Source: Escherichia coli O157:H7 (GTDB taxonomy: Bacteria; Pseudomonadota; Gammaproteobacteria; Enterobacterales; Enterobacteriaceae). From it: a DNA stretch of 64,000 nt. Position numbers: made by a program. The stretch's first letter is position 1. Each line of letters starts with the position of its first letter. Shown here in pieces: positions 46,101 to 49,100 of this stretch. The stretch lies in the NCBI RefSeq assembly GCF_013167455.1, contig NZ_CP038328.1; one strand, written 5' to 3'.

Positions 46101-49100
46101 CACTTCGCCCGTCTGCGTCTGCTGGACCCGAACCGTTTCCACGATTTCGCGCAATTCGTTGAAGAGCAGAAAAATTATCGTCCAGTAGCGGACGCCGTTG
46201 CCATGCTGCTGGCAGGTAACAAACTGAGCAATGACGAACTGAACATGCTTGGCGAGATGATCGGCGAGCAGGATATCGAGCCGCTGTTGCAAGCAGCAAA
46301 CAGCGACAGCGAAGATGCCCAGAGCGCCCGTCAGGAGCTGGTTTCGATGCTGATGGATCGCCACGGCACCAGCCGCGTGCTGTTCCGTAACACCCGTAAC
46401 GGTGTGAAAGGCTTCCCGAAACGCGAGCTGCACACCATTAAGCTGCCGCTACCGACGCAGTATCAGACGGCTATTAAAGTCTCCGGCATTATGGGCGCAC
46501 GTAAAAGTGCGGAAGACCGCGCCCGCGATATGCTCTACCCGGAGCGTATTTATCAGGAATTTGAAGGTGATAACGCCACCTGGTGGAACTTCGATCCGCG
46601 CGTTGAGTGGCTGATGGGCTACCTGACCAGCCATCGCTCTCAGAAAGTGCTGGTGATCTGCGCTAAAGCTGCCACTGCGCTGCAACTGGAGCAAGTACTG
46701 CGCGAACGTGAAGGTATTCGCGCTGCGGTGTTCCACGAAGGTATGTCGATTATCGAACGTGACCGCGCTGCCGCCTGGTTTGCCGAAGAAGACACCGGCG
46801 CACAGGTACTGCTGTGCTCAGAAATCGGTTCTGAAGGACGTAACTTCCAGTTCGCCAGCCACATGGTGATGTTTGACCTGCCATTCAACCCGGATCTACT
46901 GGAGCAGCGTATTGGTCGTCTGGATCGTATCGGCCAAGCGCACGATATTCAGATCCATGTGCCTTATCTGGAGAAAACCGCTCAGTCGGTGCTGGTGCGC
47001 TGGTATCACGAAGGTCTGGATGCATTTGAGCACACCTGCCCGACCGGACGCACTATTTACGATAGCGTATACAACGATCTGATTAACTATCTGGCTTCAC
47101 CGGATCAAACCGAAGGCTTTGACGATCTGATCAAAAACTGCCGCGAGCAACATGAAGCGCTGAAAGCACAGCTGGAACAGGGTCGTGACCGCCTGCTGGA
47201 AATCCACTCCAACGGTGGCGAAAAAGCCCAGGCACTGGCAGAAAGCATTGAAGAGCAGGATGACGATACCAACCTGATCGCCTTCGCCATGAACCTGTTC
47301 GATATTATCGGTATCAATCAGGACGATCGCGGCGACAACATGATCGTGCTGACGCCGTCCGATCATATGCTGGTGCCGGACTTCCCTGGCCTGTCGGAAG
47401 ATGGCATCACCATCACCTTTGATCGTGAAGTGGCGCTGGCGCGTGAAGATGCGCAGTTTATTACCTGGGAACATCCGCTGATCCGCAACGGTCTGGATCT
47501 GATTCTTTCTGGCGATACCGGTAGCAGCACGATTTCACTGTTAAAAAACAAAGCGTTGCCGGTAGGTACGCTGTTGGTGGAACTGATTTATGTGGTTGAA
47601 GCCCAGGCTCCGAAGCAGTTGCAGCTCAACCGCTTCCTGCCACCGACGCCGGTACGTATGCTGCTGGATAAAAACGGCAACAACCTGGCGGCGCAGGTAG
47701 AGTTTGAAACCTTTAACCGCCAGCTTAACGCGGTTAACCGTCACACCGGCAGCAAACTGGTTAACGCCGTGCAGCAGGATGTTCACGCTATCCTTCAACT
47801 GGGTGAAGCGCAGATCGAGAAATCTGCCCGTGCATTGATTGATGCAGCACGTAACGAAGCCGACGAAAAACTGTCTGCCGAGCTGTCTCGTCTGGAAGCT
47901 CTGCGTGCAGTGAACCCGAACATTCGTGACGACGAACTGACCGCCATTGAGAGCAACCGTCAGCAGGTAATGGAAAGCCTGGATCAGGCAGGTTGGCGTC
48001 TGGATGCCCTGCGTTTGATCGTTGTAACGCATCAGTAACGGAGCCGAAAATGGGGATGGAAAACTACAATCCACCGCAGGAACCCTGGTTGGTTATCCTG
48101 TATCAGGATGACCATATTATGGTGGTCAACAAGCCGAGCGGTTTGTTGTCTGTGCCGGGTCGTCTGGAAGAGCACAAAGACAGCGTGATGACGCGCATTC
48201 AGCGAGATTATCCGCAGGCAGAATCGGTGCATCGTCTGGATATGGCTACCAGCGGCGTGATTGTAGTGGCGCTGACCAAAGCCGCGGAGCGGGAGTTAAA
48301 ACGCCAGTTCCGCGAGCGCGTGCCGAAAAAGCAGTATGTGACCCGCGTCTGGGGGCATCCATCCCCCGCAGAAGGTCTGGTGGATCTGCCGCTGATTTGC
48401 GACTGGCCAAACCGCCCGAAACAGAAAGTCTGTTACGAAACGGGTAAACCTGCGCAGACGGAATATGAAGTGGTGGAGTATGCGGCGGATAACACGGCAA
48501 GAGTGGTGTTAAAACCGATTACCGGGCGTTCGCATCAATTGCGTGTGCATATGCTGGCGCTGGGGCATCCGATTCTCGGCGATCGTTTTTATGCATCACC
48601 AGAAGCGAGAGCGATGGCACCGCGTTTGTTGCTACATGCAGAGATGTTGACGATTACCCATCCGGCGTATGGCAATAGTATGACGTTTAAAGCGCCAGCG
48701 GATTTTTAACCTTTCCTGTACGTTTATACCCTCATCCTAAGGGCTGCCTCTTGTACATAAATCCCCGAGTCCGGGGATTTTTTGTTTCTGCCAAACAGCT
48801 TTCAGTTGTTGCGTGTGGCTACGCTTTCCATTCGGTAATTCCCTTCCTGCTCCACAGCGAATTTTTGAACTTTTTCTTCACCCGTTGACCGTCTCTTATA
48901 TTTCATTTTATCGGGTCTGTTATGGTCCTTTCTGATTGTTATTCATGGGCTAATTAGCAGTCTGGTTGGCGATGCCCATCTCGGTGATCCGCGTCGTACA
49001 CGACGCCTTGCGTCACTAGCCTCTTCTCTAGCTCATCATGCAGGTCTTTCTAATTGTGAAATCATCCCACGCTACTGCTAAGGTTGAAGGGGCGTTCCAG

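Follow-up and report, generated by a model that had tools for sequence, protein, structure and literature searches.

What fills the 286 nt (48791-49076) between the terminator-like hairpin of rluA and an effector-like gene in E. coli O157:H7? The initial annotation of the window (the whole 64-kb stretch analysed here, which is E. coli O157:H7 at 100% identity) had left this interval unassigned, and proposed either a remnant of an insertion event or a small RNA as its content. The former proposal is essentially right, and the latter is without sequence support: judged by homology, the interval makes up the inside of a 355-bp relic, at 48744-49098, left by an ISEc13-like insertion sequence of the IS4 family, IS50 subgroup (the name ISEc13 being taken from plasmid annotation). 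The relic lies at the rluA-side edge of a module that also carries the effector-like gene.

Several elements of the initial description stand. The flanks were labelled correctly: 48709 is the last base of rluA, the hairpin at 48759-48780 resembles a terminator, and the effector-like gene proves to be espY1, which RefSeq annotates as the split gene yabP/yabQ in K-12 and whose product gives a weak match to the Pfam Pentapeptide model. The interval indeed has no long ORF: those overlapping it (48751-48888 and 48813-48935 on the + strand, 48802-48906 on the − strand) reach at most 45 aa, in a stretch whose ceiling is 95 codons. Nor does it contain a recognised regulatory motif: Rfam matches at a permissive E-value are all sub-threshold (the best at 20 bits vs a gathering score of 70), and a consensus sigma-70 promoter is absent from both strands, a relaxed scan giving only 8-9/12 matches. 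A 6-bp stem is estimated to occur about 0.5 times per 286 nt, and neither the short ORFs, the missing motifs nor a palindrome within the interval goes beyond chance. The label ‘unassigned’, on the other hand, is wrong: in both O157:H7 and K-12, RefSeq/PGAP already places at 48922-49100 a pseudogene labelled ‘IS4/Tn5 family transposase DNA-binding protein; frameshifted; incomplete; missing C-terminus’. The spacer is thus an ordinary finding, already known as an annotated transposase pseudogene.

The assignment to an ISEc13-like element rests on contiguous homology from 48744 to about 49098 with four ISEc13 copies, including the intact element of pMAR2 (81-82% identity with gaps over ~360 aligned columns; 87-88% in the megablast core). 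The relic corresponds to roughly nt 1-340 of an element 1.55 kb long and preserves its order: left terminal repeat, end hairpin with T-run, promoter and 5′ untranslated region, and ~59 transposase codons. Three domains are recognised in the ISEc13 transposase itself, Tnp_DNA_bind, DDE and Tn5 dimerisation, and its similarity to the Tn5 transposase reaches E 6e-84. The terminal repeat of the relic, CTGCCTCTTGTACATAAAT, is identical to the Tn5 outside end at 15/19 positions and to the ISEc13 IRL, CTGTCTCTTATACACAAAT, at 16/19; it is the sole match in the 64-kb window, with 0.04 expected by chance, and fits all seven specified positions of the IS50-subgroup end consensus, CW------Y---CA-A--W- (PMC2266710). 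No right terminal inverted repeat with ≤3 mismatches was found elsewhere in the 64-kb window, and the DDE catalytic domain with its YREK motif is missing. The alignment gives out near codon 59 (49098), with no homology further downstream, so the element is a relic and not a functional IS member; and because identity is only 81-88%, its parent was a relative, not ISEc13 itself. A search for an empty site bearing the 34-nt flank of the relic found none, and the ISEc13 copies of pMAR2 and GN05064 show no evident target-site duplications.

Decay is visible throughout the coding and promoter portions. The pseudogene starts at the ATG at 48922 and is interrupted by a TAG at codon 12 (48955-48957), a +4 indel at ~48967, a +1 indel at ~49052 and a TAA at 49079-49081. 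A conceptual translation of 37 aa nonetheless matches Pfam PF14706 Tnp_DNA_bind (28.6 bits vs a cut-off of 24, E 1.2e-6) across the broken frame. Upstream, the region has an 11-nt insertion relative to ISEc13; the family −35-like TTGAAC is retained at 48865-48870, the −10 is degenerate (ACCGTC, where relatives have ATCTGA or ATCTTC) and the O157 and K-12 relics no longer have the Dam GATC site. The palindrome cgtcgtacacgacg, to which the initial annotation had drawn attention, exists on the + strand, one base away from the 48991-49004 at which it had been placed. By its reading frame it simply encodes the RRTRR of the DNA-binding motif GDPRRTRRL: it is found in all intact or decayed ISEc13 copies, and is broken in K-12 by substitutions at 48992, 48996 and 48998 and in two other strains at 48992.

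Table 1. Features of the rluA-espY1 spacer, in window coordinates
Feature	Coordinates	Strand	Basis or remark
rluA, end of gene	48709	+	
rluA-to-IS-end spacer, 34 nt	48710..48743	+	forms rluA 3′ UTR; part of the acquired module
Left terminal inverted repeat CTGCCTCTTGTACATAAAT, 19 bp	48744..48762	+	alignments to Tn5 outside end and ISEc13 IRL
Built-in IS-end hairpin AAATCCCCG-AGTC-CGGGGATTT with T-run	48759..48790	+	terminator scan, folding, family comparison
Decayed IS 5′ untranslated and promoter region	48791..48921	+	ISEc13 alignment, family comparison
Transposase N-terminal DNA-binding domain pseudogene, ~59 codons	48922..49098	+	PGAP, ISEc13 alignment, Pfam
Palindrome cgtcgtacacgacg	48992..49005	+	codons CGT CGT ACA CGA CG(C), read as RRTRR of GDPRRTRRL
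Junction hairpin, perfect 17-bp stem, 6-nt loop	49077..49116	.	inverted repeat, 100% complementary; folding
espY1, T3SS effector gene, pentapeptide-repeat C-terminus	49127..49864	−	RefSeq annotation

Each end of the relic carries a stable hairpin. The hairpin at the IS end (9 pairs, a 4-nt loop and a TTTGTTTCTG tail in the terminator scan; dG −14.8, z −3.4 on folding) combines, on the + strand, a G+C-rich stem with a TTTTTTGTTT tail, 50 nt past the rluA stop codon, and is hence predicted to be a canonical intrinsic terminator for rluA. For the − strand it is a weaker, candidate bidirectional terminator. The same structure occurs at the same position in ~20 distinct IS50-like elements, with compensatory changes in the stem. 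In ISEc13 proper, GTGATG stands where the relic has its T-run behind the end hairpin. Evolution of the T-run in situ, to which its absence from ISEc13 might point, was set aside as the default, ~20 other IS50-like elements having a T-run there; some improvement of the terminator within the relic may nevertheless have occurred.

As a separate observation, in a broad clade of IS50-like elements the outside end and the −35 of the transposase promoter are both fused to a terminator hairpin with a covarying stem. Recognition of this clade may help IS annotation and the understanding of insertion polarity.

The second hairpin sits at the junction with espY1, 0-10 nt from the espY1/yabQ stop codon. 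IS coding sequence supplies its left arm and loop (49077-49098), and the left arm recurs, duplicated and inverted, as its right arm (49100-49116). The hairpin folds better than shuffles (dG −35.9 and −34.5, z −7.7 and −8.0), is present in every carrier of the locus and is single-copy in 2072 genomes. On the + strand, where it is followed by TTATTCTGG, it scores as terminator-like. On the espY1 (−) strand no U-tract follows the stem, the tail being AGCAGUAGCG, and for this reason it is not a canonical terminator on that strand; in K-12 the tiling-array signal runs on past it (PMC6505713).

Comparison across genomes places the relic in a wider unit. Together with espY1, the relic makes up a single low-GC module of 1449 bp (GC 0.39-0.48 inside vs 0.52-0.58 outside) that sits between two convergent core genes, rluA and djlA, and is carried by 2080 of 5426 complete E. 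coli genomes (~38%); the remaining ~62% have a REP spacer of 116-150 nt in its place. The REP allele parts from the window sequence precisely at the two stop codons, BL21 and strain 4/0 departing immediately past that of rluA, and it lacks the 34-nt spacer (48710-48743) that precedes the IS end. In the outgroups, Salmonella and another enterobacterium, the same slot holds REP spacers of 94 and 177 nt. These alignments present the REP spacer as the ancestral state and the relic-espY1 module as acquired in its stead, with espY1 as the cargo gene and the IS relic marking the rluA-side edge of a small acquired espY1 island. The rluA-djlA spacer is hence a two-allele locus: ancestral REP vs acquired IS relic plus espY1. 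A search of EspY1 homologues for the cassette in other species or in paralogue flanks returned E. coli/Shigella orthologues only.

The initial annotation had held that an interval both untranscribed and unconserved would speak against its proposals. Neither property was found: the orthologous interval is transcribed on a K-12 tiling array, and all carriers share ~95-100% sequence identity here, the usual level within a species. The distribution of the variation among 12 orthologs is more informative. In the interior (48791-49076), 22/286 sites vary, and the diversity is neutral-level, indels included; the 34-nt spacer next to rluA has one variable site. The two hairpin regions together show 0/87 variable sites vs ~6.7 expected (Poisson P ~0.001, from 12 phylogenetically related sequences only). 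The IS-end hairpin has no substitutions, its T-run showing indels only, and the stem of the junction hairpin is invariant, with one insertion in the loop. We infer that the interior drifts neutrally without a function of its own, and that both hairpin ends have been retained as serving the neighbouring genes.

Taken together, we assign a probability of roughly 0.8 to the following reading: the locus holds a dead, truncated copy of an ISEc13-like element, with an inert interior and structured ends kept for the neighbouring genes. The IS-end terminator would originally have shielded the transposase from read-in transcription, and would now end rluA transcription and stop espY1-sense transcripts less efficiently. 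The junction hairpin may cap or insulate the 3′ end of espY1. The truncation could have been a single ancient event that also yielded the 17-nt inverted duplication, via snap-back or template-switch repair. Under the same reading, espY1-sense RNA over the relic in K-12 would be a read-through 3′ UTR, lying between the U-less junction hairpin and the IS-end hairpin.

This last point meets the most serious competing explanation: a separate small RNA, with its own regulatory role, would be transcribed from the interior on the espY1-sense strand, its 5′ end lying immediately beyond the junction hairpin and its 3′ end no further than the IS-end hairpin. The K-12 tiling array detected transcription of the orthologous interval on that strand (− in the window), with expressed regions at 59338-59492, 59477-59550 (nc6, 73 nt) and 59532-59742 (PMC6505713); these correspond, in order, to window positions 48904-49058, 48846-48919 and 48654-48864. 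The nc6 region was verified by RT-qPCR as regulated (log2FC −0.73 after MNNG), the array signal across the relic (log2 11.5-11.85) is somewhat above that of djlA-yabP (10.8) and could mean an independent transcript, and three earlier in-silico screens (HB_6, I165 and ECS053) flagged the same spacer (PMC6505713). Weak promoter-like matches (8/12) are present on the − strand, with −10 elements ending at 49053 and 49061, and a transposon-derived sRNA has a precedent in IS200 (PMC5435999). Against this, there is no match to an Rfam family and no consensus promoter, the interior has neutral-level diversity with indels, and the locus is missing from 62% of E. coli genomes. Neither the whole interval (z −1.2 and +0.76 on the two strands) nor the array-defined regions of K-12 (z 0.14, −0.59 and 0.22) fold better than shuffles. 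Since probes in the junction hairpin are uninformative, the array cannot separate yabQ read-through from new initiation; RT-qPCR of nc6, for its part, fixes neither the ends of the transcript nor, according to the text of the paper, its strand (PMC6505713). This tiling-array study is the sole report on the spacer that our literature search found. The espY1-sense signal in K-12 is most simply 3′ UTR read-through, an independent small RNA in the interval is unlikely, and one with a regulatory role of its own we consider improbable. Quite improbable, too, is the more elaborate version in which nc6 is an independent regulated sRNA from the antisense strand of the relic, bounded by the IS-derived hairpins, with rluA and espY1 sharing the IS terminator as a bidirectional one. 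If true, a defunct IS fragment would have been put to new use at the RNA level by a virulence-effector locus.

We hold it very improbable that a + strand transcript runs from the residual transposase promoter to the junction hairpin and insulates the 3′ end of espY1 or acts on it as a cis-antisense RNA. The retained −35 and the terminator-like behaviour of the junction hairpin on the + strand would suit such a transcript; however, the −10 has decayed and the Dam GATC is gone in O157 and K-12 alike, no promoter passes the scan, and all reported K-12 array signals are on the other strand (PMC6505713). Finally, a domesticated small DNA-binding protein consisting of the transposase N-terminal domain alone, to which the PGAP product name (‘transposase DNA-binding’) and the recognisable Pfam domain might point, is effectively refuted by the stop codons and frameshifts listed above, which leave no ORF of ≥30 aa in that frame, and by the K-12 substitutions that strike the core RRTRR motif, as is a still-mobilisable miniature element by the absence of a second terminal repeat from the window and a junction that is single-copy in every genome. 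A MITE is ruled out on these same two grounds, the one repeat and the single-copy junction in 2072 genomes.

The relic of an ISEc13-like element, in turn, gives a simple account of why the old ncRNA screens and the tiling array flagged this spacer, and suggests that the rluA terminator of K-12 and O157 was borrowed from a transposon end. As a discovery its consequence is small: it is a routine IS pseudogene already flagged by RefSeq, IS scars commonly border effector islets, and its value is modest and explanatory.

The closest known system is ISEc13 itself, intact on the EPEC E2348/69 plasmid pMAR2 (transposase WP_000244358.1) and homologous to the relic over the first ~340 nt. The two share the terminal repeat, the end hairpin, the 5′ region and the first ~59 codons, including GDPRRTRRL; unlike ISEc13, the relic has the extra 11-nt insert and the terminal inverted duplication, and has nothing past about codon 59, neither DDE domain nor right end. 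The IRR of ISEc13 has exactly the sequence of the IS50 inside end, CTGTCTCTTGATCAGATCT, and the relic resembles IS50/Tn5 at the outside end; yet ISEc13 is an element distinct from Tn5, with roughly 40% transposase identity by eye from the alignment. IS50 has a promoter layout with Dam GATC sites, and the IS50-like relatives of the relic display this layout as well; IS50 itself is not known to have a strong CCCC..GGGG hairpin with T-run next to its outside end. REP/BIME elements, which fill the rluA-djlA slot in the alternative allele and in the outgroups, also supply stable 3′ hairpins between convergent genes, but neither hairpin of the relic is a REP sequence, one being IS-borne and the other a unique inverted duplication. 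A functional parallel is offered by IS200, whose left end carries a bidirectional Rho-independent terminator protecting against impinging transcription (PMC4513863). In both IS200 and the relic the first ~35 nt contain a hairpin terminator, located just interior to the terminus and ahead of the transposase promoter, and its presumed purpose is the same, although IS200 belongs to an unrelated family (Y1 HUH transposase) and has no sequence similarity to the relic. What sets the relic apart from IS200 is that here the terminator device survives in a dead element and probably serves the host gene rluA.

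The interval 48791-49076 is real and ordinary: it is an insertion sequence (IS) pseudogene, already annotated, that borders a small effector islet. It is 100% identical to the sequence in O157:H7 strain ECP19-598 (megablast). The initial annotation was right that a long ORF is absent, as any ORF overlapping the interval has at most 45 codons, and that a regulatory motif is absent: a scan of both strands of the interval recovered no consensus sigma-70 promoter. In an Rfam search of the interval every family scored well below its gathering score. The palindrome it quoted is also real, at a one-base shift. 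None of these absences, nor the palindrome, is surprising in 286 nt. Calling the interval unassigned was wrong: in both O157:H7 and K-12, RefSeq/PGAP has a transposase pseudogene here. The adjacent "effector-like gene" is espY1, which encodes a T3SS effector and whose K-12 counterpart is a split gene, yabP and yabQ.

Features of the rluA-djlA region in window coordinates, in gene order
Feature	Position	Strand	Remarks
rapA		+	
rluA	stop 48707-48709	+	
Array region	48654-48864	-	K-12 59532-59742 (+)
IS relic	48744-49098		decayed left end of an ISEc13-like element
IS-end hairpin	48759-48780, then TTTTTTGTTT		"rluA terminator" of the initial annotation; inside the IS; abuts and partly overlaps the terminal repeat
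Interval	48791-49076		286 bp
Array region nc6	48846-48919	-	K-12 59477-59550 (+)
Array region	48904-49058	-	K-12 59338-59492 (+)
PGAP pseudogene	48922-49100		"IS4/Tn5 family transposase DNA-binding protein"; frameshifted, incomplete, C-terminus missing
Palindrome	48992-49005		
Junction hairpin	49077-49116		at the truncation point of the relic
espY1	49127-49864	-	
djlA	stop 50159-50161	-	
lptD		+	

Megablast of the interval returned two classes of matches: orthologous copies with 95-100% identity, and ~865 records with 80-90% identity annotated as IS4-family transposases. Alignment to ISEc13 copies, including that of GN05064 (full-length, frameshifted) and that of the EPEC plasmid pMAR2 (intact, "IS4-like element ISEc13"), gave unbroken homology from 48744 to ~49098, with 81-82% identity when gaps are counted. 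The homology opens with CTGCCTCTTGTACATAAAT, a 19-bp terminal repeat like the ISEc13 IRL (CTGTCTCTTATACACAAAT) and the Tn5 outside end, which agrees with the published IS50-subgroup end consensus (PMC2266710). The ISEc13 transposase (457 aa) has the domains Tnp_DNA_bind, DDE and Tn5-dimerisation, and its match to Tn5 transposase structures reaches E 6e-84. The terminal repeat, the consensus fit, the right end of ISEc13 and these domains assign the element to the IS50 subgroup. The window's copy of the transposase frame is thoroughly dead: it opens with an ATG at 48922, is interrupted by two stop codons (TAG at codon 12, later a TAA) and is shifted by indels of +4 and +1, and the leftover conceptual peptide (GDAHLGDPRRTRRLASLASSLAHHAGLS..) still lies above the Pfam cut-off for PF14706. 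The palindrome corresponds to the codon run CGT CGT ACA CGA CGC, encoding RRTRR; because it is found in every ISEc13 copy and is broken in K-12 by three substitutions, it is an inherited coding accident and not a motif. A second place outside the window matches the relic query in O157:H7 and O55:H7 chromosomes, and further decayed ISEc13 copies occur in B2-type strains at island edges, beside tRNA-Arg and tRNA-Leu.

A 2-kb query from rluA to djlA against 5426 complete E. coli genomes recovered the whole module, the relic with the espY1 unit, in 2080 (~38%); in the rest only both gene ends match. The spacer is a locus with two alleles, the second of which, present in the remaining genomes, consists of 116-150 nt of REP/BIME sequence. 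BL21 and a UTI strain have this spacer between the two genes (L004 611-726; L005 611-759), with divergence from the window beginning exactly at both stop codons. In Salmonella and another enterobacterium rluA and djlA likewise converge directly, and the spacers, 94 and 177 nt long, contain REP sequence (L104 3161-3254; L105 3161-3337). The G+C content is 0.39-0.48 over 48710-50158 versus 0.52-0.58 in the flanks. Since all these comparison genomes are of the REP type and the module is low in G+C, the REP spacer is ancestral. The 1449-bp unit (34 nt of flank, then the IS relic, then espY1 with the region upstream of it) is derived and was acquired horizontally as a module, and the proposed "remnant of the insertion event" is borne out as an IS relic within a module that replaced the REP spacer. 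EspY1 homologues were found in E. coli/Shigella only. The gene has a pi of 0.059 versus ~0.02 in its surroundings, with 93 gap columns in seven sequences (window 49127-49864; L095-L099); its variants range from 224 to 286 aa by pentapeptide-repeat copy number, and its stop is strain-dependent, at 49127 in O157 and 49117 in most others. A near-identical E. coli rluA-espY1 spacer on a 'Collinsella sp.' MAG contig (L080, JAIJJM010000692.1, 1646 bp) is most likely contamination of the bin.

The IS-end hairpin lies 50 nt past the rluA stop in the correct orientation for rluA; hence, this predicted terminator of rluA appears to be borrowed from the transposon. A scan for the end motif, with one genome per species, yielded 85 loci, from Vibrio, Shewanella, Neiella, Alishewanella, Aliagarivorans, Photobacterium and Salmonella arizonae/diarizonae. 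Among them are ~20 distinct IS50-like elements in which the 19-bp end (CTGTCTCTTATACACAAAT) leads into CCCC-N-loop-N'-GGGG, then 6-8 T in a row and GAAC (L010-L094; e.g. L029 7976-8040, L053 6185-6250, L064 250-190; window 48744-48790). The inner stem varies among elements with pairing always kept, and RNAalifold identified double compensatory changes at four pairs; this shared, covarying hairpin with its T-run therefore points to a built-in inward-facing terminator. The T-run merges into TTGAAC, a -35-like hexamer, and further inside are GATCTGATC Dam sites at the -10 position. IS50 likewise has Dam sites at the -10 position. The architecture resembles a conserved terminator that is built into the element and joined to the transposase -35. 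In ISEc13 proper the T-run has been lost (it reads GGGGATTTGTGATG), so that either the relic descends from a relative in which the T-run had survived, or the T-run was regained in situ; the pattern across the family speaks for inheritance. Within the ISEc13 lineage, relic included, the hairpin and TTGAAC are ~87 nt apart (window 48783-48864), the extra segment having ATTTTT(T)G on both flanks; in other members (L053/L054 and others) they abut.

Across 12 orthologous copies the interior varies at 22 of 286 sites, besides indels, versus no substitution in the 47-nt repeat-plus-terminator block and the 40-nt junction hairpin; the interior rate predicts ~6.7 variable sites for these 87 nt (Poisson P ~0.001 by our calculation, from a small, related sample). 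The sole changes in the two blocks are one extra loop base and T-run indels, which remove the interrupting G at 48783-48784 in two E. coli lineages (L097, L101) and leave an uninterrupted run of 8-9 T.

At the other end of the relic, IS homology continues through 49077-49098 (..GCTAAGGTTGAAGGGGCGTTCC versus ISEc13 GCTCAGGTTGAAGGTGCGTACC) and then ends. The 17 nt at 49100-49116 repeat 49077-49093 exactly in inverted orientation. This duplication of IS coding sequence gives a perfect 17-bp stem with a 6-nt loop that folds at -35 kcal/mol (z about -8) and finishes within 0-10 nt of the stop codon of espY1/yabQ. A 70-mer across this junction is present as a single copy in each of 2072 genomes, with no further occurrence; the junction therefore records one ancient event. 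The inverted duplication could have arisen when the IS suffered an internal deletion or break that was repaired by snap-back or template switch. Transposase action is the alternative. In ISEc13 the break point is just before CTGATAC, which is loosely like an IS50-type end (CTGA..). Read on the espY1 strand, the hairpin is without a U-tract; on the + strand, where TTATTCTGG comes next, it is scored as terminator-like. In O157:H7 strain SS TX 313-1 the match to the 70-nt query is confined to its final 30 nt (H122, 4824336-4824365), suggesting that the hairpin is disrupted, or carries an insertion, in this particular strain. In K-12, yabQ is reported to be one of only four transcripts destabilised by deletion of poly(A) polymerase I (PMC11708017), which may be tied to this very stable hairpin right after its stop codon (window 49117-49275 equivalent).

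A K-12 tiling-array study reported three expressed regions here, of which nc6 was verified by RT-qPCR (log2FC -0.73 after MNNG); its table notes overlap with a 3'UTR, and three older in-silico ncRNA screens had flagged the spacer too (PMC6505713). Converted as 108396 minus the K-12 coordinate, all three regions have the sense orientation of espY1/yabQ and are antisense with respect to the transposase relic. They are most simply explained by read-through: the yabQ/espY1 mRNA would pass the U-less junction hairpin and partly terminate at the IS-end hairpin, and the fall in signal from 11.85 to 10.26 across the latter (PMC6505713) fits this. An independent RNA transcribed from the interval, the "small RNA" of the initial annotation, is kept alive by that one study with its array and RT-qPCR signal; nevertheless it is improbable, as the sequence lends it no support: on both strands the predicted fold of the interval is no more stable than that of shuffled sequence (z -1.2, +0.76), the array regions are unremarkable in structure (z 0.14, -0.59, 0.22) and only weak promoter-like matches lie upstream of them.

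Beyond the pseudogene, what is mildly new is that the predicted terminator of rluA in K-12 and O157 is the one native to the transposon end, that an inverted duplication at the relic's end makes the hairpin beside espY1, and that IS50-like elements across a wide clade have a covarying end terminator in common. At its right end ISEc13 has the terminal repeat CTGTCTCTTGATCAGATCT, which does not differ from the IS50 inside end, even in its Dam sites (L009 2031-2050; L003 5459-5477), although the two transposases are only distantly related. The terminator of these IS50-like ends is functionally comparable to that at the left end of IS200, which "protects against impinging transcription" (PMC4513863).
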